The notes: generated by a model not told the origin, from the sequence alone. 64,000 nucleotides of DNA from an uncultured Candidatus Saccharibacteria bacterium (GCA_964601305.1 CAZRMW010000001.1:135450-199449), one strand, 5' to 3'. Counted from the stretch's first letter, positions 899 to 22,847 are shown. A program made the numbers and translations.

Positions 899-911
899 TG
901 TTTTTTTTATT

Positions 912-3636: not shown

Positions 3637-3637
3637 T

Positions 3638-4534: not shown

Positions 4535-4535
4535 A

Positions 4536-7653: not shown

Positions 7654-8668
7654 AATTTTTGAATTTTATTTTGTATTTATTTTGGTAATAGGCCAAGCAT
7701 CCAATCATTGCAGCATTATCTAACCTATATTCTTTTTTTGTTGGCTTTCTTAAAATAATTTCACCCCTTATTTTATTTTTGATTTTTTTGTACAAATCTT
7801 TGTTTTGAGAAAGTCCACCAACTAAATGAACCTCTTTTGCTTTCTTTTTTTTAGCTAGCAAAACTATTTTTTCAGAAAGTATTTCGTTTAATGATTCTTG
7901 AAAACTTGCTGCCACGTCTCTGGCAAAAGATCTGCTAATCCTTCCTGTTTTTCTTTTTTCTACCTCTATAAAAAGTTTAATTTGCTTTAAGAAATTAAAA
8001 AAGTTTAAATCTGTCAAATCTCCTTTGTAATACTTTTTGAAATTATATTTACAGGGATCCCCTTGCTCCATAATCTTTATAGCATTTTTAATTCCATCTA
8101 CATCGTCTCTGGAGGGCTTAACAACCCCTAAACTCTTTCCAACTGCCCTAAAAATTTTTCCAACACCTATAAAAGTTTTTATTCCGGCAATTTTTTTAGT
8201 TTCCACACTTCCACAAAGAGATTCGAAACTCTTTATATTTTTGATCAACGCAAAATCGCTATGGCTTCCAGAAGCAGAAAAAACTAATATTGGAAAATTA
8301 AAATCTTCTGGTTTTCTTTCGATCCACGAGGAATAATTGTGAGCCAAGATATGATCAACTTCCACGACGGGTTTTTTGTAAATCTTTCCCAACAACTTGG
8401 CAAACGATAATCCAACCAAAACGCAGTTATATATACCAGACTTTGAACTGACAGCAATAGCATCTATTTTATCCAAATTTATATTTTTATTATTTATATT
8501 TTTTAGCAAAAACTCTAAATGTTTTTTGGGGAGCAATTGAATAAACTCTCTCCAGCTCTTTGTTGGCAAATACCCTGAACCAGTTTTGTTAAACAAAACT
8601 TCTGTTCCATTTTCTACTATAGAAATTGCGGCACTAAAACCAGTTGTATCAATTGCTAAAATTCTCAT
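7631..8668 (-). CDS. Kae1/TsaD(Gcp)/HypF-type ASKHA-fold protein, divergent
   Basis: MRILAIDTTG start, HILAH (HxxxH metal motif), SASGSHSDF resembles SGGHT. About 345 aa. Immediately follows the YrdC-like gene. Confidence 0.55.
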   Translation of the reverse strand: MRILAIDTTGFSAAISIVENGTEVLFNKTGSGYLPTKSWREFIQLLPKKHLEFLLKNINNKNINLDKIDAIAVSSKSGIYNCVLVGLSFAKLLGKIYKKPVVEVDHILAHNYSSWIERKPEDFNFPILVFSASGSHSDFALIKNIKSFESLCGSVETKKIAGIKTFIGVGKIFRAVGKSLGVVKPSRDDVDGIKNAIKIMEQGDPCKYNFKKYYKGDLTDLNFFNFLKQIKLFIEVEKRKTGRISRSFARDVAASFQESLNEILSEKIVLLAKKKKAKEVHLVGGLSQNKDLYKKIKNKIRGEIILRKPTKKEYRLDNAAMIGCLAYYQNKYKIKFKNFEPNITL

Positions 8669-9822
8669 AACAATTCTTTAACTACTTTATTTCTCTTAAT
8701 TTTTCCTAAATTTAATTTTAAAAAACTTTTTTTCATTTTCTTTGTATTTTTTAAAGCACTTTTTACTTCTTTTTTAAAAATATTTTTTGAATCTTTGTCT
8801 ACAACTCTAGCCACACCAACATTTTTTAAAAATTTTGCTCGTTCATATTGTTCTTTGCTGTCTCTGTCTAGCGGAACTAACACTGATGGCACCCTCGCCT
8901 GCACTATTTCATTACAAACATTATAGCCCGCTGTAGATATTATTAAACTAGACAAAGTAAAAAGTTCGGGTAAGTTTTTTTCAAAAGATATTAATTTTAT
9001 TTTTAGTTTTCTTCTTTTAACTTCTTTTTTAAGTTTATCTAAATATTTAAAAGAAGGCCCCACACAAATAATCATTCTTGCTTTTGTTTCTTCTTTTTTT
9101 ATTTCTTCAAAAATTTCCACAGTTCGCTTCGCTACCCAAAAAGGAGACTTGCAATTAGCATTAACTATTTCTCCTCCACCCCCCAAAGAGACGGTAATTA
9201 AAAAATCATTATTTTTTATTTTATATTTTACTCTGCATTCACTTATATTTTTTTTAGAAATACTTTTTACTATACTCCCTGAAATAAAAAATTTTTTGTC
9301 TTTTTTAATATTTTTAAATTCTTTTTTAGATAAAATTCTAGCGACCTCTTCTTCACTATGTGGAATAATAATTTTATCAAACTCACTTAAAATTTCACTT
9401 CTTTTTTTTAAAACTAATTGATACTTTTCTTTGTCAGCTAATCTAAAGATTAACACCTTTTTTATATCACCAAACTCCGAGTCTAATATTTCAAAAGGGA
9501 AAGAAAACCCAAACAAAAAAACATCAACCACTATAGTATCTGGCTTGTGTTTGTAGATAGTTTTAATAAATTTTTCTCTATTTTTTTCCTTGGTTTTTAA
9601 AATACTTTTTCTTCCTTTTTTAATTAGACCATCTGAGGCAGGAGTAAGCCGTACAAAGGAAATATTGTTTTCTTTCAAAAAATGTGGTGATTTGCTTAAA
9701 GTGGCAAACAAAATATCTGTTTTTGGTTTTTCTTTTTTAACCAAATTAGCCAAAAGAATTGATCTTCTTAAGTGCCCTAAGCCAACACTATTTGAAGCAT
9801 AAAATAAAATTTTTTTATCCAT
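8665..9822 (-). CDS. GT-B fold glycosyltransferase-family protein (MurG/PseG/SpsG-like)
   Basis: N-terminal FYASNSVGLGHLRRSILLANLV matches the PseG/MurG G-x-G-H..R motif. C-terminal STAGYNVCNEIVQARVPSVLVP resembles the MurG C-terminal domain. Confidence 0.5.
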   Translation of the reverse strand: MDKKILFYASNSVGLGHLRRSILLANLVKKEKPKTDILFATLSKSPHFLKENNISFVRLTPASDGLIKKGRKSILKTKEKNREKFIKTIYKHKPDTIVVDVFLFGFSFPFEILDSEFGDIKKVLIFRLADKEKYQLVLKKRSEILSEFDKIIIPHSEEEVARILSKKEFKNIKKDKKFFISGSIVKSISKKNISECRVKYKIKNNDFLITVSLGGGGEIVNANCKSPFWVAKRTVEIFEEIKKEETKARMIICVGPSFKYLDKLKKEVKRRKLKIKLISFEKNLPELFTLSSLIISTAGYNVCNEIVQARVPSVLVPLDRDSKEQYERAKFLKNVGVARVVDKDSKNIFKKEVKSALKNTKKMKKSFLKLNLGKIKRNKVVKELL

Positions 9823-10726
9823 TTTTGTTTTTTAAAAACTTGGCAATACAAGGCCCCTCTATCAAACAATCTTTTTCTTCTGTTTTGTAAAGCAAGCTAT
9901 TAAAATATTTTTCAATCTCTCTGCAATTTTTAAAATCACCAAGTTTTTTTCTGTGCCAACTAGCCAGTGGGAGGCATCTAAAAACAGATAAATCTGTGCC
10001 TATATCAAACTTTCCGGAATTACCCTCGCAACCATATTTAATCCCTTTCTTATTGAAAACATCTTTAGATAGACCACAGCCCAAACCGACTCCTATGTTT
10101 TCTCTTTTAATTTTTTGGATTTCATTTATAAGTTTTTCTGAGTTTACAGAAAAATTCGGATTAGCCAGTCTTAAAACAATATTTTTTATACCAAATCTTT
10201 TGGCAATTTTTATTAAATAGTCTGATTCAAACTTATCGTCAAAAACGACCGCACCCACCAGAGTGTTTTTAAAAACAGAAATTTTTTCTAAATTTTTTAA
10301 AACCTGGTTCCATATTTTGGAAGAATATTTTTCTTTTGGATTTATATTAAAACTATATCTTATTCGAGAATCCTTACTTAACAAAAAATCTAAAATATTT
10401 TTATCAAAAATTCCGTTTGTAAAAATTTGCACAGAAAACCCTCTTTTTAAAGACGCTTCTACAATTTCTTTGAATTTAGGGTGCAAAGTTGGCTCTCCAC
10501 CCATTAGACGCACCTTTTTTTCTCTGCTCCCCCCCAAAAAATCCAAAACTTTTTCAAAATCAGAAAAAGACATTTCTTTGTTTTTTTTCTCCATTTCGCT
10601 TTTAGCAAAACAATAAGAACATTTTTGATTACATCTATTTGTCAGTAAAATATTAGCCATAGAATATAAGTTTATTCTATATAAAATAAACCAAATGAAA
10701 AAGGCATGCTGTACAAGACAACACAC
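9815..10726 (-). CDS. Radical SAM protein (start probably at MANILLTNRCN, position 10660)
   Basis: CNQKCSYC, LMGGEPTL, Cys-containing C-terminus. Confidence 0.75.
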   Translation of the reverse strand: MCCLVQHAFFIWFILYRINLYSMANILLTNRCNQKCSYCFAKSEMEKKNKEMSFSDFEKVLDFLGGSREKKVRLMGGEPTLHPKFKEIVEASLKRGFSVQIFTNGIFDKNILDFLLSKDSRIRYSFNINPKEKYSSKIWNQVLKNLEKISVFKNTLVGAVVFDDKFESDYLIKIAKRFGIKNIVLRLANPNFSVNSEKLINEIQKIKRENIGVGLGCGLSKDVFNKKGIKYGCEGNSGKFDIGTDLSVFRCLPLASWHRKKLGDFKNCREIEKYFNSLLYKTEEKDCLIEGPCIAKFLKNKNG

Positions 10727-10749
10727 CTTTAGCTTGAAAGACCCTTACC

Positions 10750-10965
10750 TTACCAACTGGTAATTTCGGTCTCATCGACACCGAAAAACATATCGGTGTC
10801 GATGGCTGACGGCAAGTTTGTCGAAAACCATTTCATGATTTCGGCATCATTTATGTTTATGCCGAAATACATGTCAGAATCGACGGCCGACATAGGCTCG
10901 GCAGCGATGGCCAGAGAAGCAACAAAACAAACAATAAGTGCGGCGATAAGCAGTGAACGGATCAT
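10750..10965 (-). CDS. Small secreted/signal-peptide protein with two internal repeats (DSDMYFGI.../DTDMFFGV...)
   Basis: 71 aa with a hydrophobic N-terminus (LLIAALIVCFVASLAIAA). Strong SD AAGGAG 7 nt before the ATG. TTGACA-N17-TAAACT promoter on the minus strand at about 11024-11052. GC about 46% against about 30% in the flanks. Confidence 0.5.
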   Translation of the reverse strand: MIRSLLIAALIVCFVASLAIAAEPMSAVDSDMYFGININDAEIMKWFSTNLPSAIDTDMFFGVDETEITSW

Positions 10966-11066
10966 GATGTCTCTCCTTTTTTTATCTGTTTTTTAAAATA
11001 TCACATCCCATAATCTATTCTGAAGTTTATCATAGCCTATTCTATCTGTCAAGACCCTGATACAAT

Positions 11067-12233
11067 TTAAAAACGATTTAGTTTTTCTATTCTTATTCCT
11101 TCTTTTTTCTTCAACACCCTTCTTCTATGTTGACGCCCAGTACATTCACCTGCAATTTTTCCAATTGCCACATCTTTTTTAAGACAATTCTGCTCTTGAC
11201 GCATATTTACCATACTTTGATCAAACCACAATTCTTTAAGTGATGTTTTTTTTACGTTTCCAGTCGGCAAATCTTCCCTCATCCAACAAGGAACAACATT
11301 CCCTTTTTCGTTAATAAACAATGACATTTTCTCCATTAAGCAAATGTCCCCATCCAAAAACGGAGCACCGATCCAACTCCAACCCTCTTTTTGAATCTTT
11401 TCCATTTTTTGATTAAATCCAAAAATTTGCTTTTCTGTAAGTTGTAATTTTTTAAAATTATCAATAGCCCTACCAGACCACTGTATCCTTTCTACACAAG
11501 GTTGTATATTATGACCAACACACCATTTGATGATATTAGGCACCTCTTTGTAATTCAAACTACAAAGTAAATTATTGTTTATTAATCTGGTTCTGCCCCA
11601 CTGATTGCTTTTATTAAAACCTGCCGACATCAAATTAAAAACACCTTTATACATTTTAGTTGCTGCGCCAGACACACCAACTAAATAGTCTTGTGTTTTA
11701 GAATCAAAAGAATTGATCTTAAATATAATCGAACAATCTAAGTCATATAGCCTATGGGCAATCTTAGGTGTAACTAAAATTGCATTTGTCAGCAATAAAC
11801 TACGAACACCTTGGCTTCTTGTGTATTCCATTAACTTCCAAATAAAAGGATATAACAATGGTTCGCCTCGTCCAGCAAAAATTACTTGTTTAACCCCCAA
11901 ATCAGCTGCCTGCTGAATTATGTTTTTATATTCTTCTTCCGATAATATTTGACTTTTGTTTTCTTTGCCACAGCTACCCAAACAATAAATACATTTCAAA
12001 TTACATTTTTTACCAAGAAACAACTGTAGTTTGTCGGGACGATAATCAGATTCAAAATCGACTAAACTATTTTTACAATACAATTTCCTAAAAACACCTC
12101 TTTGGTTTTTTGGTAAATTCCTGTTTGTGGAAGGCAAAATATCAAAAGCTGATTTTGTTGTTTTAATCATAAAATAAATTAATTTATAAAATCTATAAAA
12201 TACTCGTAAGAATACTCTTGCTTTCTTGGACAA
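11067..12233 (-). CDS. Radical SAM protein (start likely MIKTTK, position 12170)
   Basis: CNLKCIYCLGSC, FAGRGEPLL, Cys in the C-terminal part. Confidence 0.75.
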   Translation of the reverse strand: MSKKARVFLRVFYRFYKLIYFMIKTTKSAFDILPSTNRNLPKNQRGVFRKLYCKNSLVDFESDYRPDKLQLFLGKKCNLKCIYCLGSCGKENKSQILSEEEYKNIIQQAADLGVKQVIFAGRGEPLLYPFIWKLMEYTRSQGVRSLLLTNAILVTPKIAHRLYDLDCSIIFKINSFDSKTQDYLVGVSGAATKMYKGVFNLMSAGFNKSNQWGRTRLINNNLLCSLNYKEVPNIIKWCVGHNIQPCVERIQWSGRAIDNFKKLQLTEKQIFGFNQKMEKIQKEGWSWIGAPFLDGDICLMEKMSLFINEKGNVVPCWMREDLPTGNVKKTSLKELWFDQSMVNMRQEQNCLKKDVAIGKIAGECTGRQHRRRVLKKKEGIRIEKLNRF

Positions 12234-13147
12234 AATCTTTTTTTAGTATCTTCTATAGATATTGAAAAACTATTCCCCCAATTAAGGTGTTCGTACCCTT
12301 TATTGGCAAGCATTTCTAGAAAAAAGAGATTCAAAACACCACTAGCACCCGGTATTTTTCTGTCTACACACAAAACACTTCCAGATAAATTCTTTGATTT
12401 TGCAAGTTTGAAGGCAATATTTATCCCTATTGGACGCTGGTTGCAACACAAAACAAAACTTTCATACAATCTTGGGTTTTTTAGTGTTTCTTTTACTATT
12501 CTTAGATTCTTATTATAAACATGCTTGTAAGTAACAAGATTGGTCTCCTCTTTCTCCGCCCCCCTCTCTTTGTGTTTTTTCCAATCATCTAAAAGTCTTT
12601 TTACGCCACAATAATTACTATCTAACAATGGCTGGTAGGAAATTTGTTGTTTAGTTTTCTGTTTAGCTACAAAATTAAAAAAACTATTCCAACTTTTTCG
12701 TCTTAAATCAGGCTTGTCAGACAAAAAATCTTCTAAGTTTTTATAATCAGGCAGGTAAGAAATAAGCCTCTTTCGTTTTACAAATTTTATGGATTTGAAC
12801 TTTTCGTTGTGCAAATATTTATCTAAAACCTGTTCTGGCAACTCCCAAAGCCAAGCTTTTCTAAAATTTTTACCTAATTTATCTTTTCGTTTGATTAAAA
12901 AAGAAAATAATTTCTCTTGCCAATCTTTACCCTTGGGACAACAGAAAAAATACATTCCTGAATTAAACTTACCAAAAAAGAAAATATCTTTCCCGTCGTT
13001 GTAACTCAGGGCTAGTTTATTGCCATCAATATAATTATCAACAAAAGCTTCGCTGTCACTAAAAAAAGAAGAATTGGGGCTACATAAACGATTAAAGAGT
13101 TCTACGTCACCCTTATTAATTGAATGTATTTCAGATAAATTAACCAT
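12179..13147 (-). CDS. Hypothetical protein (322 aa), no confident family assignment
   Basis: Long ORF co-directional within the operon. No recognisable motif. Confidence 0.45.
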   Translation of the reverse strand: MVNLSEIHSINKGDVELFNRLCSPNSSFFSDSEAFVDNYIDGNKLALSYNDGKDIFFFGKFNSGMYFFCCPKGKDWQEKLFSFLIKRKDKLGKNFRKAWLWELPEQVLDKYLHNEKFKSIKFVKRKRLISYLPDYKNLEDFLSDKPDLRRKSWNSFFNFVAKQKTKQQISYQPLLDSNYCGVKRLLDDWKKHKERGAEKEETNLVTYKHVYNKNLRIVKETLKNPRLYESFVLCCNQRPIGINIAFKLAKSKNLSGSVLCVDRKIPGASGVLNLFFLEMLANKGYEHLNWGNSFSISIEDTKKRFCPRKQEYSYEYFIDFIN

Positions 13148-13157
13148 TATTAAATAT

Positions 13158-14531
13158 TTAATTAAAATCTTTTTCTAGTTTAGGGTGATTTGGAAGATTT
13201 TCTAGCTTCTTAAGAGCAATTAAAATCTCCGACAAACTAGTCTGACAAAATAAATGCACCCAATCATTAATCATCTCCTGTCTATCAAAACTATCTTTAT
13301 ATTTATATTTCTTCTCCATTTTTTTAACCAATAATTGAAAAGACAAAGAATTAGGCAAAGGCTCAAAAATATGAGACAAGACCACATTCATACCTAACGC
13401 ATTAAGTTTATACACAAAATCTACTGTCCGATCTATTGAATCTTTGCTTTCTCCTGGACCACCAAACACAAAATTCCCTATTACACTAATTCCGGCTTTC
13501 TTCAAATCTTTTACAGCCTTAAACCCAATACTAGTTACTGTGCCTTTTTTCATAGAAGAAAGTATTTTTGGATCACCGCTTTCTAGCCCCAAAACAACCT
13601 GATGAATGTTGAGATCTTTAATTTTTTTAATATTCTCAGAATTTATATCATCAGCTCTAGCATAAACTCTCATTCGTGGTTTAAAACTATATCCTTTGTA
13701 CAAACTGTGAAATTCTTTAAACCAACCTTTCTGATCAAAAAAATCATCACTAATATCCCAAATAAGATCCGCGTTAAATTTTTTTACCAAAGAATCTATC
13801 TCTTCCAAAACTAAATGGGGACTACGAGCTCTTAGGCTCTTATACATTCTAGAACAAAAAATACAGCCACCTTTTGAATTTGTGCGCCAACCACAACCCT
13901 TTTTTGAATATATATGAAAAACATTTTTGTAAAAGCGATCAGGCCATTTTTGATCGAAAATTTTATAATATTTTTTATAATCAATTATTTCCCGACCAAA
14001 ATTGGGCAAGCTGTTTAAATCAACGTGTTCAATTATATTTTTTTTAATAGAGCCGTCTTTTCTGTCTTGGAAAACAAGATTCTTTATTTTGCTTAAAGGT
14101 TTGCCTATTGCATATTCATAAAAACTCCTTTCCCCATCTTCTTGAATAACCGCATCAACACAATAATTATCAGAACAAATTCCTCGATTTAGCATAATTT
14201 CTTCAGCAAGACCTGTTGCATGATGGCCACCCATAACAACTTTACTGCCCAACATCTTCGATTTTAAAGCCAAAGACAAAGCATTGCCATAATTAACAAG
14301 CATTGGTCCAATTCCCACCAAGTCCGGTTTATTTTCTTCTAAAAAAGAAATAGTTTCAGAAAGATCCAAAATTTGGCCATCTAAAATATGTATTTCTGCT
14401 TTTAAATTTTTTCTTTCTAAATAATTAGCCAGACTAATAGCCCAAAGTGGTGGATAAATACACCCCTCAATAAAAACGTTATCATTATATCCATCGTCGT
14501 CTTTTGGGGGATCTATCAACACAATAATCAT
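13158..14531 (-). CDS. B12-binding domain / radical SAM (class B rSAM, methyltransferase-like)
   Basis: N-terminal Rossmann-like cobalamin-binding region (LVGIGPM...VVMGGHHATG), then CGWRTNSKGGCIFC and LGLESGD. Typical class-B architecture. Confidence 0.7.
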   Translation of the reverse strand: MIIVLIDPPKDDDGYNDNVFIEGCIYPPLWAISLANYLERKNLKAEIHILDGQILDLSETISFLEENKPDLVGIGPMLVNYGNALSLALKSKMLGSKVVMGGHHATGLAEEIMLNRGICSDNYCVDAVIQEDGERSFYEYAIGKPLSKIKNLVFQDRKDGSIKKNIIEHVDLNSLPNFGREIIDYKKYYKIFDQKWPDRFYKNVFHIYSKKGCGWRTNSKGGCIFCSRMYKSLRARSPHLVLEEIDSLVKKFNADLIWDISDDFFDQKGWFKEFHSLYKGYSFKPRMRVYARADDINSENIKKIKDLNIHQVVLGLESGDPKILSSMKKGTVTSIGFKAVKDLKKAGISVIGNFVFGGPGESKDSIDRTVDFVYKLNALGMNVVLSHIFEPLPNSLSFQLLVKKMEKKYKYKDSFDRQEMINDWVHLFCQTSLSEILIALKKLENLPNHPKLEKDFN

Positions 14532-15241
14532 AGATGACTTTTTTTAAGAATATATATTGGATAAAGTTCAAAATCGCTGTAATCAGCAGCCATTTTTAAA
14601 TCACGAACAATAAAATATTTTGATAAAAGCTCATCAATTTCTTCTACTGTTCTTTGTGTAAGAATTTGAGAATCATTCTTTTTGTTAATAATATTTTTAT
14701 CAAACAAACACACGCGGGTAACAAAAAATCCAGTCTCTTTCAGCAAAAGAGAAATTCTTTTTAAAAATTCCGCTTGTTCATTTGGCTCAAAATTACACAA
14801 AACAAAATCACCAATAATTAAATCAAAATGACTTTCTTTTAAAAAACCAGTCAAATCCATCCAATTAGCCTTTGTCCATTTTTCATTATTTTTAACCTCC
14901 TCTTTACATACCACAACATCAATATTAAGCTTAAACAAAACATCTCTTATTTCTGGGGTAGAACCTAAGAGCAAAACTTTTTCTTTTATGCTTATTTGAT
15001 TAAAAATCAGCAAGTAATTTTTGATATCTTCTGGAGAAAGCCTAAAAGGAGAAGAATATTCGGCCCACCTTGATAAAGCGCCACCCTGATCTAGTTCGTC
15101 AAATAAGCTATTGTTATTCGACAATTCTAATGATTTCTGTAGTTTTTTATTGTTGTTTATACCTCTTATTGTCATTAATTTTTCAGCTGATATTTTAAAT
15201 TTCTTTTGTGTTATTCTCTCATAAAAAGTATGGGCACTCAA
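14528..15241 (-). CDS. Rossmann-fold SAM-dependent methyltransferase-like protein (paralog A)
   Basis: VLLLGSTPEIRDV...VVVCKEE and FDLIIGDFVLCNFEPNEQAEFLKRISLLLKETGFFV (motif II/III-like). Paralogous to 15284..16135. Confidence 0.4.
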   Translation of the reverse strand: MSAHTFYERITQKKFKISAEKLMTIRGINNNKKLQKSLELSNNNSLFDELDQGGALSRWAEYSSPFRLSPEDIKNYLLIFNQISIKEKVLLLGSTPEIRDVLFKLNIDVVVCKEEVKNNEKWTKANWMDLTGFLKESHFDLIIGDFVLCNFEPNEQAEFLKRISLLLKETGFFVTRVCLFDKNIINKKNDSQILTQRTVEEIDELLSKYFIVRDLKMAADYSDFELYPIYILKKSHL

Positions 15242-15283
15242 GCATTTGTACCAAAAGAAGTATATATTAATTTAATACGACGC

Positions 15284-16135
15284 TCACTCCAAGCATCGTT
15301 TTTTCATTTTGTATACTGGATAAAATTCCGAATCTATATAGTCACCAGAGTTTATATTTTTATTTATATAAAAACTATCCAAAAACATTTTTTCTAATTC
15401 TTCTTTAGTATTCTGAACCCATGTTCTCTTCCCTCTCCATTTTTTTAAAATATTTTCTAAAACAACTTTTTCTCTTTTGCTTGTTGTTTTGTTATTTAAA
15501 TAGTTATAAATATCATTGGTAAATTTTTCTTTATTAATTTTTTTATTTTTCAGATTTGTGTTTTTATCAAACAAACGAGATGTTATAAGATCCTCGATCA
15601 ATTTACTTTTCAAAACAGAATATTTTTTAAAAGCGTTTTTTATTATATTTTCTGACTTAAAATTAATCATTTTTTTGTTAAAACAATGTATTCTCGTAAT
15701 AAAAATTCCTTCTTTGTTTAATAGTCTTGAGATTTTGTTTAAAAACTTGCTTTGGTATTTGGTCTCAATATTTCGCAAAACCAAATCTCCCAAAATAAAA
15801 TCAAAATAATTATCCTCAAAAAATTTATCTAAATTTAACCAATCAATTTTTATCCATTCTTCTTTGTTTTTGTTAATTTTGTATCCTAATTTAGTCATTT
15901 CTTCCATCATTTCTATAGAAAAATCTGCCACAGTAATTTTAGAACTATTTTTTGAAAAAATTTCTCTAATTTCTGGGGTAGCTCCCAACAATAATATTTT
16001 TTTATTACTATCTATACCAGAAAAATAATTTTTTATGTCCTTTTTAGAAGGTCTGAAAGGGAAAGTATATTTATTCCATAACAAAGAAGCATTTTCCCAA
16101 TTTGATTTTTTAAAATTACTCTTTTTTGTTTTCAT
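15284..16135 (-). CDS. Rossmann-fold SAM-dependent methyltransferase-like protein (paralog B)
   Basis: ILLLGATPEIREIF, FDFILGDLVLRNIETKYQSKFLNKISRLLNKEGIFI. Clearly homologous to 14528..15241. Confidence 0.4.
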   Translation of the reverse strand: MKTKKSNFKKSNWENASLLWNKYTFPFRPSKKDIKNYFSGIDSNKKILLLGATPEIREIFSKNSSKITVADFSIEMMEEMTKLGYKINKNKEEWIKIDWLNLDKFFEDNYFDFILGDLVLRNIETKYQSKFLNKISRLLNKEGIFITRIHCFNKKMINFKSENIIKNAFKKYSVLKSKLIEDLITSRLFDKNTNLKNKKINKEKFTNDIYNYLNNKTTSKREKVVLENILKKWRGKRTWVQNTKEELEKMFLDSFYINKNINSGDYIDSEFYPVYKMKKRCLE

Positions 16136-16197
16136 TAAAAAATAATACCAAAGGATTGGTATTTATAAAACACAAACAACTAGCTGTAATCTCAAAA
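16136..16197 (-). terminator. Intra-operon hairpin plus U-tract (partial terminator/attenuator) between the membrane-protein gene and the methyltransferase-like genes
   Basis: On the minus strand, AAUACCAAUCCUUUGGUAUU (8-bp stem) is followed by AUUUUUUA immediately before the next start codon. Confidence 0.4.
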
Positions 16198-17109
16198 CTA
16201 CTCAATCTCACACAACAAACCTAAAAAAACACTTAAATGTTCCGTCTCGCAATAATCTCCCTTGATGTATTCTTCGTATTCTTTTATCCTTAAAATTTCG
16301 TCATTGCATACTATTTCTGAAGTTCCCATATTTTTACAAACTAGACGAGAAAAATCTTCACCTAAAGATCTATAGGCATAAGCAATTCTAATACCAGTCT
16401 GCACCTCTCTTATTTTTTTATTTTCTACCAAAGGCCCTATGCCCTCTATCGCTTTGAGTGCTTCACCTTCTTCTAGCCCGGAAAAACTCTTTGCAACGTC
16501 ACAAATATTATCACATTTCTTCGGAAATCCACTAGGAGTAGTGTCCAAAGAATTTAATCCATCCTCACATCTTTTTGTTAAAAGACTACAAGTATCTTCG
16601 TTTAAATCTTCTACTGTGGCTAAAACAAGTATAAGTTTATTAAAACCTTCTCTTTCTTCTAATTTTTCCAGATATGTTTTTTTTGATTCATCAGCAGTAT
16701 CTTCTTGATAATTTATATTTTCAATAAAATTTTTAGCTCTATTATAAAAATCTTCATCATTAGGATTTGCAAGAGATTTACATATTAAATATCTTCTAAG
16801 TTTACCGACAGCCAAAGACATTCTGTCTAATTCAAATGTAGTATTTCTAAAAACAATGTTGTTAACCTTAAAATCCAAGCTTTTGTCTGATTCTTTTAGA
16901 TTTGCTAATTTTTCTATCAACTCATCGTCTGATAAATTTTTAGATTCTTCTAAACATTTTGCTTTTACCGCTTCTGATGAAATATGGTGTTGGTCTCTAC
17001 TAAAAAACCAAAAAGCCACAGCTAATAAAATCAAAACAACTGCTGTAAATATTATTGAAAATTTTTTATTTTGTAGCATTTGAAAAATTAATAAGCCGGA
17101 CTCATACAC
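16198..17109 (-). CDS. Membrane-anchored Cys-rich hypothetical protein
   Basis: N-terminal TM segment (FSIIFTAVVLILLAVAFWFF) and many Cys residues. Probable start at M11, which removes the overlap with the precursor gene. Confidence 0.5.
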   Translation of the reverse strand: MYESGLLIFQMLQNKKFSIIFTAVVLILLAVAFWFFSRDQHHISSEAVKAKCLEESKNLSDDELIEKLANLKESDKSLDFKVNNIVFRNTTFELDRMSLAVGKLRRYLICKSLANPNDEDFYNRAKNFIENINYQEDTADESKKTYLEKLEEREGFNKLILVLATVEDLNEDTCSLLTKRCEDGLNSLDTTPSGFPKKCDNICDVAKSFSGLEEGEALKAIEGIGPLVENKKIREVQTGIRIAYAYRSLGEDFSRLVCKNMGTSEIVCNDEILRIKEYEEYIKGDYCETEHLSVFLGLLCEIE

Positions 17110-17570
17110 CCGCCACCACTACAACACGCAAAACAAACACAAGCATTTGAATGGTTTGCATGAGAACTATGTGAACCATGGCTACCGTGTGATCCATGAC
17201 TACCGTGACGGCCGTGACTACCGTGAGACCCATGCGATCCATGCGAACCATGAGATCCGTGACTACCATGCGATCCGTGACTACCATGCGATCCGTGACT
17301 GCCGTGAGAACCATGTGAGCCATGAGAACCGTGAGACCCATGCGAGCCATGCGAACCGTGAGACCCGTGGCTACCGTGTGATGCATGAGAACAATCAGCC
17401 GAACTTGTATTTGGCTTCATCGCCCCCGAAAGCACAACACCCAAAGACAGCACCCCCATAGCAATTTTGGCAGCACTTTTTTTATTTATTCTACCCTCTT
17501 CACTATTTAAAAAAGCTTTTATATCTTTTTTAATTTGAGGAAATTTTTCTTCCGATTTCTTTTTGGCCAT
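17088..17570 (-). CDS. His-Xaa-Ser repeat (HxsA-like) precursor-type protein: leader/TM-like N-terminus, 27 S-H-G-type triplets, Cys-rich tail CVCFACCSGGGC
   Basis: Translation MAKKKSEEKF...SSADC-SHA-(SHG)19-RHG-(SHG)3-SHS-SHA-NHS-NACVCFACCSGGGCMSPAY. A rSAM/SPASM gene sits directly upstream. Confidence 0.8.
   Translation of the reverse strand: MAKKKSEEKFPQIKKDIKAFLNSEEGRINKKSAAKIAMGVLSLGVVLSGAMKPNTSSADCSHASHGSHGSHGSHGSHGSHGSHGSHGSHGSHGSHGSHGSHGSHGSHGSHGSHGSHGSHGRHGSHGSHGSHGSHSSHANHSNACVCFACCSGGGCMSPAY
17148..17390 (-). repeat. 9-bp-periodic coding tandem repeat encoding Ser-His-Gly triplets
   Basis: catgNccgtgNNtaccgtg-type periodicity with varied codons (synonymous heterogeneity), so not a recent slippage array. 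Confidence 0.85.
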
Positions 17571-17591
17571 TAACTAAATTATAACAATTAT

Positions 17592-19022
17592 TTAATTTTT
17601 ATTAAACCAGTCTTCTAAAATTTTTCTAGACTCTTTATTTTTAAGTTTTTCAAACAAAAACTCTAGTGTTGCCATATTTATCTTACACCTTTCATTTGAA
17701 GACATTTGCCCAAAAATATTTCCCTGAACAAAATAATTGTATATAGGGCAAACCCCGCAATACGGCTTGTAGGCACAATCGCAACACCCGGGCAGACCAT
17801 CTAAGCACGACGCCATACACATAGTTCTAGATACAGGACTAGCTACTATTTCTTGGTAACTATCCTTGGAAACATTGCCAAGTCTAAAACTTTCATCGCC
17901 CATCATACTCATCATTCTGCCTTCATCGCACGTGTAAACATCGCCATTATAATTGTAAGCTAGCTGCCCTATACCTGCTCCGCACGGAGACCTAAAATCT
18001 AAATGGTTTGGGTCTTTGTGAGTTAAAATTTTTGCCAAAAAAGTAATAGCCATTTTTTCCCTGAAATCTACCCCTTTTTTGTTTAATTCTAAAATATAAT
18101 CAAAAGCGGCTTTGTAGAAATCCATATATTCATCGGTAGTATAGCCAATTTTTTCAAAATGATTTTTAGAAAAACCAAATGGATTAAGCGGTCTTAAATA
18201 AACATCGGAAAATCCAAGCTTAATAAATTCGTCTATCATTTTTTTATAATATGGCAAAGAGAATTTGCTTACGGTTACAGAAGGACTTAGTTTGTAAATA
18301 TAGCCTTTTTTCTTTAGCTGTGGATACATCTTATTAAACTTTTTCGCCCATTTAATCGCATGTTTGTAGCTGTTTTTATTTTTGCCACTTATTATTGGCC
18401 TGTTTTTATTGTGGACACCCTCTGGGCCGTCTAAAGAAATACAAAAACTCACTTTGTTGTCTATTAGATATTTAAACTTGTTTTCTGTCATCAAAGAAAA
18501 ATTAGAAACTAACCTTAGTTGCAAATCTTTATTAGCTTTTTTATTTTTTTCTTGCGCATACTCAATAATAAATTTTACTATAGACCAATTCACCAGTGGT
18601 TCTCCCCCCTGAAATTCTATTGCCACAAAATCACTTGTTGTTTCAAAAATTTTATCAACCACGCTTTTTGCAGTTTTTTTATCCATATCTAAATCCCCTC
18701 TATCTAAATCTTGGGCGCTTGCATGACAATATACACACTTATGATTGCATCTTAAAGTAACCACAACTATGTGCAAACTGGGTCCACCAAAAACAAAATC
18801 ATTTTTAGATTTATATTTTTCTATTACATAGCTTAAGTCTGCTTCATTTTTTAAGAAATTTTTGTCCTCTAGTTTTTTGTATAGTTTACTCCTCTTTTTT
18901 ACTTTTCCATCTTTAAAATCTTGAAAATCTTCTTTACCTAAAAACAAAAAATCACCAACATCGTTGGTTAAAAAATATTCATCTCCCACTAATTTAAAAC
19001 GAAAATGACTAGGTTTGCTCAT
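17592..19022 (-). CDS. Radical SAM/SPASM maturase (HxsB/HxsC-like, anSME-like)
   Basis: CNHKCVYCHA, FQGGEPLV, C-terminal SPASM cysteines (CGAGIGQ...C...CMASC...CCDCAYKPYCGVCP). Confidence 0.8.
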   Translation of the reverse strand: MSKPSHFRFKLVGDEYFLTNDVGDFLFLGKEDFQDFKDGKVKKRSKLYKKLEDKNFLKNEADLSYVIEKYKSKNDFVFGGPSLHIVVVTLRCNHKCVYCHASAQDLDRGDLDMDKKTAKSVVDKIFETTSDFVAIEFQGGEPLVNWSIVKFIIEYAQEKNKKANKDLQLRLVSNFSLMTENKFKYLIDNKVSFCISLDGPEGVHNKNRPIISGKNKNSYKHAIKWAKKFNKMYPQLKKKGYIYKLSPSVTVSKFSLPYYKKMIDEFIKLGFSDVYLRPLNPFGFSKNHFEKIGYTTDEYMDFYKAAFDYILELNKKGVDFREKMAITFLAKILTHKDPNHLDFRSPCGAGIGQLAYNYNGDVYTCDEGRMMSMMGDESFRLGNVSKDSYQEIVASPVSRTMCMASCLDGLPGCCDCAYKPYCGVCPIYNYFVQGNIFGQMSSNERCKINMATLEFLFEKLKNKESRKILEDWFNKN

Positions 19023-19025
19023 AAA

Positions 19026-19253
19026 TTAATTAAGCATTAAAGCTAAAACATAATTGCAAAATTCATCTTTTACCAGAGTAGCTTTAGATTTTTTTAGATT
19101 TTTTATTTTCACTGAAAAATAGTTCCCTTTTCTGCTAAAAACAAAATCTGCAAAACCACTAAAGTCTTTTATGGCCAATTTTATTGCTCCTAATTTATAT
19201 AACTTATTATGAAATTTTATTGTTTCCATATTTTTCTTCCCATGGCACGGCAA
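19026..19253 (-). CDS. Small hypothetical protein (75 aa)
   Basis: ORF within the operon. No motif. Confidence 0.3.
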   Translation of the reverse strand: MPCHGKKNMETIKFHNKLYKLGAIKLAIKDFSGFADFVFSRKGNYFSVKIKNLKKSKATLVKDEFCNYVLALMLN

Positions 19254-19629
19254 TGCCTAATGGATCATCCTCAGAGTTAAACGAATCATCAAAATCTTCT
19301 TCGCTTTCTCCCACAGCCGAAAACAAAGCTTGTCCCACTATAAACTCTCTTATTTTCTTATTGTTTTTAGAAAGTCTCGCTCTAGTTTCGCAACTTAATA
19401 ACTCGTTTAAAAATTCATCTTTCAAATTTTCTAATTGTTTTTTGGTAGAATTTTTTTTAGATTTTAAAGATACCAAAATTTTTTTTGGACTTTTGTTGTC
19501 AAAAAATATATAGGCTTTATCTAAAAACGCATAAGCTGCACCATAAAGAGCATCTACAGAATAATTTTGTAGATTAAAAACAAATTCTATCTTATCTTTT
19601 TCGATTTTTTCGCTATATTTTTTACTCAT
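19207..19629 (-). CDS. Hypothetical acidic-C-terminus protein; possible HxsD-like accessory protein (weak FLNELLSCE resemblance to the LLNDYxLRE motif)
   Basis: 140 aa ORF, first gene of the block. Confidence 0.35.
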   Translation of the reverse strand: MSKKYSEKIEKDKIEFVFNLQNYSVDALYGAAYAFLDKAYIFFDNKSPKKILVSLKSKKNSTKKQLENLKDEFLNELLSCETRARLSKNNKKIREFIVGQALFSAVGESEEDFDDSFNSEDDPLGIAVPWEEKYGNNKIS

Positions 19630-19751
19630 TGTTAATTAAATAGCTATCTTCAAAGCATGTCTCATTAGCCTTAGTTTTTGCCAAATAAAAACCAGCATAA
19701 AAAGATAGTGCTAAAAAAACAAAAACAAAGAGATATCTAAAAAAAATCTTC
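19622..19751 (-). CDS. Possible small membrane peptide (42 aa, MKIFFRYLFVFVFLALSFYAGFYLAK...) upstream of the cluster
   Basis: Short ORF below the track cutoff. Hydrophobic. Confidence 0.2.
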
Positions 19752-19778
19752 ATACAACCTTAGAATAACAAAAACAAA

Positions 19779-22415
19779 CTATGAGCACAAACCCCACCCA
19801 CAAGCTGGGCAAGACAAACAACCTTCTTTGAAAGAAACCTCTACTTCACAATTTGGACAGTGAGTAACTTTTTTACCAAAGTCTTTTACCTCTTCCTCCC
19901 CACCAGCTTCTCCATTTACATATGGCGCCGAAGGGTCTCTATAAACTGCTAGCCCTTCTGCTTTTTCATCTTTAATCCTTTTTAGCGATTCAAGATCAAC
20001 CTCCTCTTTCTTTTTCTTTTCTCTTTTTTTGTTTGTAGAAGAAAGAACCTGGTCTTTTATAGAGCCATCTCTGTACACTGTTGTACCCTTACATCCAAGT
20101 TCATAAGCCAACATATAAACTTTTTTCATATCGGCTATCGTTGCATCTTTTGGAAAATTAATAGTTTTTGAAATAGAAGAATCTACCCATTTCTGAAAAG
20201 ATGCCAAACTTCTAACATGATCTTCTGGTTTAATATCGTGGCTTACTACAAAAACTTTTTTTAAAGCTGGCGGAATGTAGTTTATTTTCTGAGAAGAGCC
20301 TCCATGATTTAAAACATCCGTAACCAAGCTGTCATCAAATAACTCTTCTGCGAGCATAGCTCTCTCAAAAACAGAGTCTATATAATAAAACTTTCCGACA
20401 GCCACATTTTTTTGAAACACCAAAGAATACACAGGCTCTATTCCTGAAGAACATCCTGCAATCATAGAAATAGAGCCAGTCGGAGCAATTACTGTGGTAT
20501 AGCTATTTCTAATGCCATTTTTTTTGATATCTTTTGCAAGTTTTTTCCAGTCGAGGTTCCAACTACTCTTGTTATAAAAACCAGCAAAAGGCATTTTGCC
20601 CTCTGCATAAGAACTATTCTTAAATAAGGGGAAAACTCCCCGACTTTTCGCCATATTCATAGATTCTGCCTTAGAATAATAGTTTATAAATTCTGCAATT
20701 TTTTCCATTAAATCTCTACCTTTTTTAGAATTGTAAGGAATTCTAAGCTCAAAAAGCAAATCACCAAGCCCCATTATTCCGAGACCGATTTTTCTTGTTT
20801 TTAAAGTCATTTCCTCTATCTCGGCCATAGGAAAAGCATTTATATCTATAATATTGTCTAAAAATCGCACTGCAGAACGCACAGCTTCTTCCAGTTTATC
20901 CCAGTCTATAGATTTCTTTTTTCGATTGTTTATTTTTACAAAACGCCATAAGTTTATTGAACCTAAGTTGCAAGATTCGTCTGGGTAAAGAAGTAATTCG
21001 CCGCATGGATTTGTGGTAACAATATCGCCCAACTCTTTTGCAAGAGGGTTGTGTTCGTTTATTCTGTCATGAAAAAGCACGCCAGGCTCTGCAGACTCCC
21101 ATGCCTGATAAACAATACTTTCAAACAATATTTTTGAAGAAATTGTTCCCAAAATTTTTCCGTCTCTAGGGTTTTTTAGTGGGTAAGGCTTTCCTTTTTT
21201 GTAGTAATCCCAAAAATCTCCCATCATTAGTACAGAAATATTAAAATTCTTTAACGCTTTGTTGCCATCTTTTGCTACAACAAATTTTTCAATATCTGGA
21301 TGATTGCTATTCATAATACCCATATTAGCGCCTCTGCGTATTCCCCCTTGCTTTACAACTTCTGTCATAGTATCGAAAAGCTTCATAAAACTAAGCGGAC
21401 CAGAAGATGTACCTCCAGTTTTTTTAATAAAATCTCCCTCCGGACGAAGTTTTGAAAAATTATATCCCAACCCACCGCCAGATTTAAAAATAAGAGCTGC
21501 TTTTCTTAAAGTATCCATTATAGAATCCATTGAATCGTCAATATCTAAAGCAAAACAAGCAGAGCCCATACCCAAGTAGCTACCAAAATTTGCTAGAGTT
21601 GGTGTATTTGGCATAAAACTTCTAGAAACCATTAGGTTATAAAAATTATCTATTTCTTTTTGGTGCTCATCAAACTTTCCCTTCTTTAACATAGAGACAA
21701 GTTTATCCCATTTTATTTTTATTTTCCCATTAGACTCAAGCCTTTTAAAAGTATGGTGCAAAGCTTTTATATGAAATCTATTTAAAGTGTACTCTCCTAT
21801 TTTGATCTTTCCCTCTAACACGATGGCCTTTTTGTTGCTCAAGGTAAGTTTTTCTTCGCTTGGAACAGTATCTTTTTTAACTTTCTTATAACTAACTCTT
21901 TTGTCGTACAAAATATCTGGTAAAGCAGTATGTATTGCTACTCTTAAAAAAAGTTCTCTAGGTGTTTCTTCTATCTTTCCTTCGTCGTTTTTGTTTAAAT
22001 ACCTACTTTTTAAAACCTTAAGCGCGTTTGAATCAAAAGCTTTGTCTACATCATCTATTTCCTTCTTGTTTAAAATTTCTTGTTTTTCTTTTCTAATCTC
22101 AGATCTTTTTTGCCTGTACAATATATAAGTCTTTGCAACCTTAGCAAATCCTTTATCCACCAAAGACTGTTCTACCATATCTTGAACTTCTTCAATGGTT
22201 GGCACAGCCTTTGAAAAATTTTTCTTATGCTTGGCAAAAATTTTTTCAAGCACCGATACTGTAACTTCTTCCGCAAGTTTTTTTTCAGGCTTTCCGCACA
22301 CCTCAAGTGCCTTAAAAACCGCCTCTGTAATGCGGTTTTTGTCAAAATCTTCTATTCTCCCACCTCTTTTTTTAATCTTTTTGGGAGTCTTTAATTGGGA
22401 ATTTTTTCCTCTCAT
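19779..22415 (-). CDS. nrdJ: Adenosylcobalamin-dependent ribonucleotide reductase (class II) with N-terminal ATP-cone and C-terminal zinc ribbon
   Basis: ATP-cone RGGRIEDFDKNRITEAV, active-site TNPCGE, C-terminal CPNCEVEV...CLSCPACG. Confidence 0.85.
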   Translation of the reverse strand: MRGKNSQLKTPKKIKKRGGRIEDFDKNRITEAVFKALEVCGKPEKKLAEEVTVSVLEKIFAKHKKNFSKAVPTIEEVQDMVEQSLVDKGFAKVAKTYILYRQKRSEIRKEKQEILNKKEIDDVDKAFDSNALKVLKSRYLNKNDEGKIEETPRELFLRVAIHTALPDILYDKRVSYKKVKKDTVPSEEKLTLSNKKAIVLEGKIKIGEYTLNRFHIKALHHTFKRLESNGKIKIKWDKLVSMLKKGKFDEHQKEIDNFYNLMVSRSFMPNTPTLANFGSYLGMGSACFALDIDDSMDSIMDTLRKAALIFKSGGGLGYNFSKLRPEGDFIKKTGGTSSGPLSFMKLFDTMTEVVKQGGIRRGANMGIMNSNHPDIEKFVVAKDGNKALKNFNISVLMMGDFWDYYKKGKPYPLKNPRDGKILGTISSKILFESIVYQAWESAEPGVLFHDRINEHNPLAKELGDIVTTNPCGELLLYPDESCNLGSINLWRFVKINNRKKKSIDWDKLEEAVRSAVRFLDNIIDINAFPMAEIEEMTLKTRKIGLGIMGLGDLLFELRIPYNSKKGRDLMEKIAEFINYYSKAESMNMAKSRGVFPLFKNSSYAEGKMPFAGFYNKSSWNLDWKKLAKDIKKNGIRNSYTTVIAPTGSISMIAGCSSGIEPVYSLVFQKNVAVGKFYYIDSVFERAMLAEELFDDSLVTDVLNHGGSSQKINYIPPALKKVFVVSHDIKPEDHVRSLASFQKWVDSSISKTINFPKDATIADMKKVYMLAYELGCKGTTVYRDGSIKDQVLSSTNKKREKKKKEEVDLESLKRIKDEKAEGLAVYRDPSAPYVNGEAGGEEEVKDFGKKVTHCPNCEVEVSFKEGCLSCPACGWGLCS

Positions 22416-22550: not shown

Positions 22551-22847
22551 TTATTTCTTACTTAAGCACCCTCCATCACAGGCGCATTTATGTTCAGGTT
22601 TGTCTGCCACGAAGTTTATCAGTTTTTTCAAAATATTTGATCTCATCATCATTGCTGGATAGGTTTCCTTTTCGATCCACCTTTCTACACTATCTGTGGG
22701 TACCCCAATCTCCCGAGCCACAGTCTCTGTGTCCAAATCGTAAAGATAAATAAGTGTTTTAAAAAAATCACAAAAATAATCATCTCCTAACTTTTTTGCA
22801 TCCTTAATTTCTTCCGGCAAAATAGCCCCCCATTCCTTTTTTCCCAT
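22551..22847 (-). CDS. Small HTH DNA-binding protein with C-terminal Cys cluster
   Basis: TETVAREIGVPTDSVERWI helix-turn-helix. HKCACDGGC tail. Strong RBS GGGAGGAG. Confidence 0.5.
   Translation of the reverse strand: MGKKEWGAILPEEIKDAKKLGDDYFCDFFKTLIYLYDLDTETVAREIGVPTDSVERWIEKETYPAMMMRSNILKKLINFVADKPEHKCACDGGCLSKK

Follow-up and report, generated by a model that had tools for sequence, protein, structure and literature searches.

A 27-unit His-Xaa-Ser repeat gene of the HxsA4 type beside hxsB and hxsD in an uncultured Candidatus Saccharibacteria bacterium

His-Xaa-Ser systems were reportedly predicted by comparative genomics in the work of Haft and Basu in 2011. The canonical system (HXS) of Escherichia coli and Klebsiella is an HxsD-HxsB-HxsC-HxsA antiphage system that blocks DNA entry, and 99.7% of its hosts are Pseudomonadota (Li et al., Nat Commun 2026, PMC13128918). 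E. coli HxsA has a signal peptide and five repeats, is processed and modified in an HxsB/C/D-dependent manner and acts in the periplasm, and an electrostatic DNA-binding or trapping mechanism has been proposed for it; the Ser, His and Ser of its SHRSS motif are each essential, and the modification amounts to +8 Da by a chemistry that is still unsolved (PMC13128918). Experimental work has been confined to this proteobacterial four-gene system (PMC13128918), and the HxsA4 branch consists so far of annotation models only. A further point of comparison is offered by the triceptides, peptides made by ribosomes and modified after translation (RiPPs) with three-residue cyclophanes, which are made by radical S-adenosylmethionine (SAM)/SPASM enzymes, the enzymes that form three-residue cyclophanes (3-CyFEs), such as HaaB, YhhB and HtkB; these synthases form His-C2 to C-beta cross-links on HAA, HNR and HTK motifs (PMC11499958). 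Here we describe a stretch of 64,000 nucleotides of DNA from an uncultured Candidatus Saccharibacteria bacterium (GCA_964601305.1, CAZRMW010000001.1:135450-199449), hereafter the window, in which the gene hxsA4 encodes a protein with 27 His-centred triplets. We put the probability at roughly 80% that this product is an HxsA4-type repeat protein, made by the ribosome as the substrate of a radical-SAM maturation system and probably serving as its final effector.

The gene lies on the minus strand at 17088..17570 (ATG start, TAA stop included), and its coordinates and translation are exactly those of the original prediction. The 160-aa product, a His-Xaa-Ser repeat precursor or effector, consists of a 60-aa N-terminus, 27 x-His-x triplets and a 19-residue tail, NACVCFACCSGGGCMSPAY. 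The repeat (17148..17390, minus strand; residues 61-141) reads SHA-(SHG)19-RHG-(SHG)3-SHS-SHA-NHS, with His central in all 27 triplets, a single Arg and no Lys, and the tail (17091..17147, minus strand; residues 142-160) contains five Cys and ends in an aromatic residue, as in most family members. The product matches the NCBIfam model NF038313 (HxsA4) with 107.3 bits (E 5.4e-31; cut-off 55) over profile positions 1-92 of 93, and 588 database proteins match it at E<=0.001. Since the repeat may inflate the model score, the leader (residues 1-60) was compared separately; it is 49% identical over 49 aa (E 4e-15) to one protein named HxsA4 by NCBI (P0070) and 46% identical over 56 aa (E 9e-14) to another (P0074). 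Proteins so named come from Omnitrophota, 'Actinobacteria' and other metagenome-assembled genomes (MAGs). The gene is a member of a family that NCBI annotation already names, and an ordinary annotation run would label it correctly.

Three maturase-type genes, all on the minus strand and all scoring above the cut-offs of their curated models, are found immediately upstream, so that the claim of an HxsA-type precursor with linked maturases is borne out. The gene hxsB (17592..19022) ends 21 nt upstream of hxsA4 and encodes a 476-aa radical SAM/SPASM maturase (TIGR03978, 529.1 bits, cut-off 370) in which the Pfam domains Radical_SAM, Fer4_12 and SPASM are all matched. It is preceded by a gene for an HxsD-like small protein (19026..19229; NF038315, 73.1 bits, cut-off 41). 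The choice of start codon sets the length of this protein at 67-75 aa, with the open reading frame (ORF) extending at most to 19253, and on public contigs it is annotated as a 67-aa gene. The hxsD gene itself (19207..19629) encodes 140 aa (TIGR03976, 65.6 bits, cut-off 50). A direct Pfam scan of the window HxsD returned no match, and the identical hxsD on two public contigs (L001 and L002) carries a precomputed match to Pfam PF27806 (HxsD).

Relatives of HxsB with 49-73% identity were found in genome collections among MAGs of the Patescibacteria (candidate phyla radiation, CPR), a group to which the window's bacterium accordingly belongs in all probability, and more distant ones in Elusimicrobia and DPANN archaea. 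We compared 35 loci in all. An HxsA4-type gene is present in 20 of them; the remaining 15 comprise loci in which none was detected and contigs whose end falls at the gene or within it. At least 12 Patescibacteria loci keep the order hxsD, hxsD-like, hxsB, hxsA4, which spans Patescibacteria, Elusimicrobia and Omnitrophota; the hxsD-like gene is kept between hxsD and hxsB in 14 loci, and in the Patescibacteria loci a gene for a membrane-anchored Cys-rich protein usually comes next after hxsA4. Some DPANN loci deviate, with hxsB directly before hxsA4 in L030 and no hxsB detected in L033. Scans for the leader motif and for His/Cys density revealed no precursor in the archaeal HxsB loci L020-L028. 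As a separate observation, the Diapherotrites archaeon locus L033 (GCA_038895395.1, 5554..19910) contains genes for HxsD, an HxsD-like protein, four HxsC-like radical SAM proteins and an HxsA4-like precursor with a Cys-rich tail, and further encodes a 623-aa radical SAM protein, a B12-radical SAM protein, glycosyltransferases and a methyltransferase; HxsB was not detected there.

The locus shares with canonical HXS the HxsB and HxsD orthologues recognized by curated models and a substrate that carries His-x-Ser repeats and, as predicted here, an N-terminal export signal, and by analogy cytoplasmic maturation followed by export would be expected here too. It differs in several respects. The window HxsA4 has a 32-residue conserved extension before its hydrophobic segment, lacks a peptidoglycan-binding domain, contains 27 non-basic repeats and has just 19 residues after them; the locus has no hxsC between hxsB and the hxsA-type gene, since hxsA4 follows hxsB directly, and contains the extra hxsD-like gene; and the hosts of HxsA4 are Patescibacteria (CPR), DPANN, Omnitrophota and Elusimicrobia. 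PADLOC-DB 2.0 has no HXS model and gave only generic similarity to viperin-type radical SAM proteins. With the family described by NCBIfam (NF038313, with its companions NF038315 and NF038332), the agreement extends to the leader motif of named members from Omnitrophota and 'Actinobacteria' MAGs and to the neighbourhood, in which hxsD, hxsD-like, hxsB, an exported Cys-rich protein and hxsA4 are followed by several radical SAM genes. The window copy departs from that family in its 27 repeats, against a median of 15, and in a Cys-rich tail of 19 residues, which is uncommon; the HxsC-like genes of the window are 12-17 kb distant, with scores short of the HxsC4 cut-off, and its array is interspersed with genes for methyltransferases, a glycosyltransferase and TsaC/TsaD-like proteins.

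The N-terminus looks like a leader for recognition joined to a signal or anchor of the Sec type. Residues 10-31 (17478..17543, minus strand) form the leader motif FPQIKKDIKAFLNSEEGRINKK, presumed to be the recognition element of the maturases. In an alignment of 28 family sequences the motif is PxIKKxIKxFLxSEEGxI; F20 and G26 are invariant, K14, L21, E24 and E25 are kept in at least 90%, and all six are present in the window copy. It is followed by a hydrophobic segment of 19 residues, AAKIAMGVLSLGVVLSGAM (17418..17474, minus strand; residues 33-51), with Kyte-Doolittle 15-residue means of 1.5-2.08, which would serve as a Sec-type h-region or signal anchor. In the same alignment a hydrophobic segment occupies this place throughout the family and is followed by small-residue motifs. 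The polar c-region of the window copy, KPNTSSA/DC (17391..17417, minus strand; residues 52-60; the stroke marks the cut), offers a candidate signal-peptidase I site by the (-3,-1) rule, with the small residues Ser56 and Ala58 at -3 and -1 and then a Cys that is conserved in the CPR clade; relatives have TSA/AC, ALG/AC, TEA/NC, AQA or AAA/H at the same place. The layout suggests either an N-in signal anchor or a signal peptide of the Sec type whose conserved n-region is unusually long. Hydropathy, conservation across the family and, by analogy, the signal peptide that E. coli HxsA possesses (PMC13128918) all favour the membrane- or signal-like N-terminus that had been proposed at the outset. 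A lipoprotein reading of the conserved Cys was rejected: no lipobox of the form [LVI][ASTVI][GAS]C ends the signal sequence, S-A-D-C has Asp at -1, and charged residues precede it. Some relatives have L-G-A-C at the lipobox place, in most cases with charged residues before it.

The DNA of the repeat is highly diverse at synonymous positions. Five codons are used for Ser, four for Gly and two for His, the 27 units comprise 19 distinct 9-mers, and the 22 SHG units occur in 15 DNA versions, where 15.6 would be expected for independent draws from the repeat's own codon frequencies. The mean pairwise nucleotide identity among the SHG units is 68%, and Tandem Repeats Finder reports a period of 9 with only 64% matches; the synonymous codons are effectively randomised. 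The G+C content of the repeat is 55%, against 34% across the window. A local exception to the codon diversity occurs at residues 91-105, where the 18-bp unit AGTCACGGATCGCATGGT is perfectly repeated about 2.5 times in tandem, and the longest exact repeated string within the repeat is 29 nt, from which at least one recent slippage or duplication event follows. The original prediction had held that the 9-bp repeat uses many different codons and is maintained by selection on the peptide rather than by recent slippage. The codon diversity is real, and selection on the peptide is upheld both by synonymous diversity equal to that of independent draws and by the family-wide conservation of Ser described below; the dismissal of recent slippage holds for the repeat overall but must be qualified by the one recent 18-bp duplication and by the fast change of repeat number among relatives. 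Long ORFs in other frames over the repeat (17102..17386 and 17147..17461) had been set aside as antisense artefacts of the repeat. That they are artefacts agrees with the existence of conserved homologues for the HxsA4 frame only, but 17102..17386 lies on the minus strand, the same strand as hxsA4, and only 17147..17461 is on the plus strand.

Repeat counts and tail classes were recorded for 117 family members carrying the leader motif. The number of repeats, whose variation in metagenome relatives had been named as worth a look, lies between 5 and 43 (median 15), which places the window copy among the longest; close Patescibacteria relatives have 6, 12, 13, 15, 19, 20, 29 and 43 units, in addition to contigs that end in the repeat. 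Across 1547 family triads the Ser position is Ser in 84%, and the middle position is Gly in 45% (44.8%), Ser in 24% and Ala in 18%. The His and Ser positions are thus conserved while the middle position varies, which points to selection on His and Ser and not on Gly. The tails end in Trp in 45 of the 117 members, in Tyr in 27 and in GGWC in 12; ten (about 9%) have tails with at least three Cys (ACACAC.., CCCGTTGY.., CSCCGGGCKC), and 23 fall into none of these classes. The nearest relatives of the window protein end in ..SSY, ..SAY or ..ASY, and the window tail looks like a Cys-rich insertion ahead of a terminal ..AY. In one Falkowbacteria MAG (L011), two HxsA4 genes with 19 and 6 repeats (11558..11929 and 11948..12187) stand in tandem directly after hxsB.

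These features can be combined into a mechanism. The leader motif (residues 10-31) would be recognised in the cytoplasm by HxsB, HxsD and the HxsD-like protein, as its conservation suggests. HxsB together with HxsC-like paralogues would then modify the repeated His and Ser side chains, a proposal made because both positions are conserved in the family, because the Ser, His and Ser of SHRSS are essential in E. coli and carry +8 Da, and because the triceptide cross-link provides a precedent. Sequence rules and the analogy with E. coli HxsA suggest that residues 33-51 and the S-S-A motif act as a Sec signal peptide or signal anchor, in which case the modified (Ser-His-Gly)n and the Cys-rich tail, together about 100 residues, would end up outside the cytoplasmic membrane. 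There the exported repeat would probably work with a membrane-anchored, disulfide-rich protein of 293 aa whose gene is translationally adjacent. The Cys-rich tail may be an optional extra module, perhaps cross-linked, to speculate further, by a SPASM enzyme encoded at 4536..5654. By analogy with the canonical system, our leading guess for the function is an envelope-located barrier or a defence role.

The resemblance to triceptides lies in the repeated aromatic-X-X triads with His first, which occur in the H-G-S form 27 times in HxsA4, and in the radical SAM/SPASM maturase encoded next to the precursor. The His-C2 to C-beta cross-link may serve as a precedent for H-G-S. Triceptide precursors, however, are short and soluble and have no signal segment, HxsB does not belong to the characterised cyclophane-synthase families, and the sole measured Hxs modification is +8 Da, against -2 Da for a simple cross-link.

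Several observations weigh against the HxsA4 interpretation or parts of it. The low-complexity repeat may account for about three quarters of the 107-bit HxsA4 score, and the leader alone, at E<=1e-5, matches only the HxsA3 model (27.8 bits) and not NF038313. HxsB scores 53.3 bits on both the YhhB (cut-off 445) and the GrrM/OscB (cut-off 310) models, against 123 bits for PapB and 111 for SCIFF, all below the cut-offs; it is therefore no closer to cyclophane synthases than to thioether-forming SPASM enzymes, and the scores single out neither chemistry. No canonical HxsC is encoded, the HxsC-like proteins fall below the cut-offs and their genes lie downstream of hxsA4 at the distance given above, and it is synteny in other genomes that suggests their involvement. 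Signal-peptide cleavage is predicted from the sequence rule only. Without a peptidoglycan-binding domain and with one basic residue in the repeats, the mechanism proposed for E. coli is not directly transferable. Our literature search found no paper on HxsA4, HxsC4 or NF038313, and no experimental data on HxsA4.

The alternative that survives best, which we nonetheless consider rather unlikely, is that hxsA4 encodes a multi-core RiPP precursor whose repeat, once modified, is processed to numerous short peptides that are secreted, such as cyclised His-Gly-Ser units, a metallophore or an antibiotic. The layout of leader plus repeat and the battery of radical SAM, methyltransferase and glycosyltransferase genes do resemble natural-product clusters, several H-x-x motifs are possible in triceptide precursors, and a promoter-like site lies just ahead of the precursor gene. 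However, no protease or peptidase-domain ATP-binding cassette (ABC) exporter was found among the array genes scanned, no recognisable cleavage sites separate the repeat units, the Sec-type hydrophobic segment is conserved, and the characterised HxsA acts as a protein.

A plain exported His-rich protein for binding or storage of Ni, Zn or Cu, with no radical SAM modification and with neighbouring enzymes that act elsewhere, is less probable still, and we regard it as improbable. A composition of 27 His and 6 Cys among 160 residues is typical of metal-binding proteins, the chemistry of the neighbouring enzymes is undefined, and the array contains an ORF that is a second candidate substrate (10750..10965). 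Against this, the order hxsD, hxsD-like, hxsB, hxsA4 is kept across three groups, a conserved leader motif of cytoplasmic type precedes the signal segment, and Ser is conserved at 84%, as for a modification motif, whereas metal binding alone would not need Ser. The original prediction would have given way to simple His-rich metal-storage homologues without linked maturases; instead, all 20 HxsA4-type genes lie in radical SAM clusters, 18 of them beside an HxsB relative. The modified product could still bind metal, which would fit with the HxsA4 interpretation.

That (Gly-Ser-His)n forms a bacterial collagen-like triple helix in a surface fibre is very improbable: Pfam Collagen (PF01391) matches with 54.4 bits (gathering score 27.2) and is the only domain found in a Pfam scan of the product, NCBIfam models of Scl/Lcl collagen-like adhesins match weakly and far below their cut-offs, and Gly is third in 23 of the 27 triplets of the window copy, but that position is Gly in just 44.8% of the family triads, with His and Ser conserved instead, and there is no Pro, no trimerisation domain and no anchor domain, so that the matches are compositional and the reading was rejected because Gly is not conserved at the family level.

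Equally remote is the view that hxsA4 is no real gene or an assembly artefact, either non-coding tandem DNA or a mis-assembled join that created the Cys-rich tail; two public assemblies of the same organism do break inside the repeat, but hundreds of homologues share the leader and frame, the score on the curated hidden Markov model is above the cut-off, the synonymous diversity speaks against DNA generated by slippage, the tail ends in ..AY like the ..SAY, ..SSY and ..ASY of the nearest relatives while Cys-rich tails recur in distant members, and the next gene begins 8 nt past the hxsA4 stop in a synteny that is kept in L003, L008 and L009. Nor is the gene a frameshifted fragment, an outcome under which the initial interpretation would have failed: the leader aligns with its homologues from Met1, and the other frames of the tail contain no His-x-Ser continuation. 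The two independent metagenome contigs, L001 and L002, agree with the window along about 11.6 and 11.7 kb, showing 0 and 1 mismatches, and end inside or just before the repeat, at window positions 17441 and 17278. The organism is also represented in ENA ERZ23499079 and JGI 3300009374. Independent confirmation therefore covers only the first 12 of the 27 units, and the last 15 repeats and the tail have the support of the window assembly alone. Public short-read assemblies (L001, L002, L005, L006 and L010) repeatedly break inside or just before the HxsA4 repeat, and for this reason HxsA4 genes are probably under-represented or truncated in metagenome catalogues.

On a broader view, which we hold to be possible but on balance doubt, HxsA4 systems would be more than a minor variant of the E. 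coli defence system, namely a distinct and widespread pathway, mainly of ultra-small or anaerobic lineages (Patescibacteria, DPANN archaea, Omnitrophota and Elusimicrobia), in which a (Ser-His-Xaa)n polymer is hyper-modified by up to about ten radical SAM enzymes and exported as envelope material. In the window the battery would comprise, among others, HxsB, at least four HxsC-like genes with five radical SAM domains, a B12-dependent enzyme and two further SPASM enzymes. If so, this would be a new envelope material, such as a rigid cross-linked poly-imidazole fibre or a metal-binding layer, in which the disulfide-rich membrane partner would hold the polymer and the Cys-rich tail would add a second module, either cross-linked or binding metal. 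Should the role prove to be envelope defence, few if any defence or surface systems of CPR and DPANN episymbionts would have been described earlier. Organisms with minimal genomes give about 19 kb and some ten radical SAM genes to the HxsA4 locus. The precursor unites a recognition leader with an export signal, and rapid evolution of its repeat number and C-terminal modules contrasts with fixed His and Ser residues. A long uniform (SHG)n would carry the same modification up to 27 times and would for that reason be a far better substrate for HxsB/HxsC chemistry than the five-repeat E. coli protein.

The adjacent partner gene (16198..17079, minus strand) begins 8 nt after the hxsA4 stop and encodes a Cys-rich all-alpha protein of 293 aa. 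Its family has 31 representatives among 1.84 billion proteins, and a word-indexed homologue search found a single near-identical protein. An N-terminal transmembrane helix is accompanied by five invariant Cys and four more that are nearly so, as one would anticipate of an extracytoplasmic protein. A confident all-alpha structure model was obtained (predicted local distance difference test, pLDDT, 82), which has no informative structural neighbour; a single-sequence AlphaFold model was discarded as unusable (pLDDT 50). Analogous Cys-rich proteins bearing a signal sequence or transmembrane helix flank HxsA4 in Elusimicrobia, Omnitrophota and other loci. No homology between the exported Cys-rich proteins of CPR and Elusimicrobia was detectable by hhalign (probability <=20%), and their equivalence is therefore positional only.

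A second modification site in the Cys-rich tail, as suggested in the original prediction, is plausible because such tails recur in 10 of the 117 family members. A speculative candidate for its modifier is the 372-aa radical SAM/SPASM protein encoded at 4536..5654 on the minus strand, whose best match is TIGR04340 (ACGX-system maturase). The tail NACVCFACCSGGGCM, like ACACAC... and CSCCGGGCKC, resembles the Cys-rich cores of SPASM substrates such as those of the ACGX system (TIGR04340), SCIFF and the ranthipeptides, and the 372-aa enzyme is encoded in the same array as the precursor; in contrast to these families, however, the window enzyme falls below the family cut-offs (155.9 bits against 400 for TIGR04340). 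To our knowledge, the action of the ACGX system is uncharacterised. Orthologues of the enzyme are present in L029, with an (SCHS)n precursor, and in L030, with the tail CSCCGGGCKC, and none was found in CPR relatives with plain ..SSY tails; this co-occurrence of tail and enzyme covers three loci, too few for an association. The L029 precursor (11390..11812), which is HxsA4-like with the usual leader and a period-4 S-C-H-S repeat, adjoins HxsB and the closest orthologue of the 4536..5654 enzyme.

The Hxs genes are part of a minus-strand array (1..19629) with ten radical SAM genes (eleven domains), two methyltransferases, a GT28-type glycosyltransferase and a pair of TsaC/YrdC- and TsaD/Kae1-like genes, in which the genes are tightly packed or overlap. 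The best NCBIfam matches of three of the radical SAM proteins are HxsC4 (NF038332, cut-off 500 bits) and HxsC (TIGR03977, cut-off 267.9 bits), all below cut-off: a 298-aa protein at 3638..4534 (158.1 and 99 bits, respectively), a double-domain protein of 627 aa at 1753..3636 (233.5 and 171.9 bits, each over two stretches) and a 282-aa protein at 912..1760 (132.1 and 103 bits), all three on the minus strand. The genes that NCBI names HxsA4 in L034 and L035 are closely followed downstream by orthologues of the first (380 bits), with more orthologues in L013, L014 and L033; an orthologue of the second (671 bits) lies 6 kb from the HxsA4 gene of L014, and one of the third (440 bits) lies upstream of hxsD in L010. 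Such HxsC-like orthologues thus neighbour HxsA4 genes in loci of Omnitrophota, Patescibacteria (CPR) and DPANN. The HxsC-like orthologues in the NCBI-named HxsA4 loci themselves score just 166-177 bits on HxsC4, from which we conclude that the NF038332 model is narrower than the HxsA4 system. The array also encodes a 453-aa radical SAM protein (5654..7015, minus strand; Pfam Radical_SAM) with orthologues of 291-326 bits in L003, L007, L008 and L009 and of 172 bits directly after HxsA4 in L035. On the basis of this synteny the HxsC-like genes and the 453-aa enzyme are regarded as part of the HxsA4 system; the remaining array genes are probably associated with it. Batteries of 4-8 radical SAM genes follow HxsA4 in L034 and L035, and in L033 and L034 the HxsA4-like genes are found together with genes for B12-radical SAM proteins, glycosyltransferases and methyltransferases.

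The rest of the array, all on the minus strand, was assigned as follows. At the left edge, an open segment of 309 codons in frame 2 (1..927) encodes a putative radical SAM protein with a CNNQCSFC motif (..ITGYKCNNQCSFCID..); it runs off the window, so that the radical SAM battery probably continues past it. The 453-aa enzyme gene is followed in coordinate order by genes for a TsaC/YrdC-like protein (7012..7653; TIGR00057, 141 bits, above cut-off), a divergent TsaD/Kae1-like protein (7631..8668; 136 bits, below the cut-off of 296), the GT28-type glycosyltransferase (8665..9822), a radical SAM protein (9815..10726), a 71-aa exported repeat ORF (10750..10965), a radical SAM/SPASM protein (11067..12233), a protein without an assigned family (12179..13147), a B12-binding radical SAM protein (13158..14531) and two class-I methyltransferases (14528..15241 and 15284..16135). 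The YrdC and Kae1 pair resembles carbamoyl or threonylcarbamoyl transfer enzymes, possibly with a substrate other than tRNA. The 453-aa radical SAM, YrdC and Kae1-like genes recur near HxsA4 in three Patescibacteria genomes (the window, L003 and L007); the trio is contiguous at 5654..8668 in the window and at 16111..19629 in L003 and is dispersed in L007 (13869..14927, 18428..19990 and 20950..21416).

The 71-aa ORF, MIRSLLIAALIVCFVASLAIAAEPMSAVDSDMYFGININDAEIMKWFSTNLPSAIDTDMFFGVDETEITSW, has a signal-peptide-like N-terminus, and a D-x-D-M-[YF]-F-G-[IV]..E-I-x-x-W motif occurs in it twice. The ORF occupies the only sizeable gap of the array (340 nt), between the radical SAM/SPASM and radical SAM genes, and may be a second precursor; no homologue was found among 31 loci.

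An Rfam scan of the window found three tRNAs only, none of them near the hxsA4 locus, and a terminator scan found none convincing after hxsA4 and a single weak match inside its 3' end. The promoter-like site mentioned above, TTAATA-16-(TG)TATAAT (17578..17605, minus strand), lies directly upstream of the hxsA4 start within the 3' end of hxsB and was the top sigma-70-like match of the scan, with 10 of 12 consensus positions matched and an extended -10 element. Promoter-like sites in the hxsA4 region are no more numerous than expected from shuffled sequence, so the site is to be read as a consensus match only; as a candidate promoter it would let the hxsA4 precursor be transcribed on its own. 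Outside the array, a 98-aa ORF (22551..22847, minus strand) upstream of a ribonucleotide reductase gene has a Cys-rich end, ..EHKCACDGGCLSKK.

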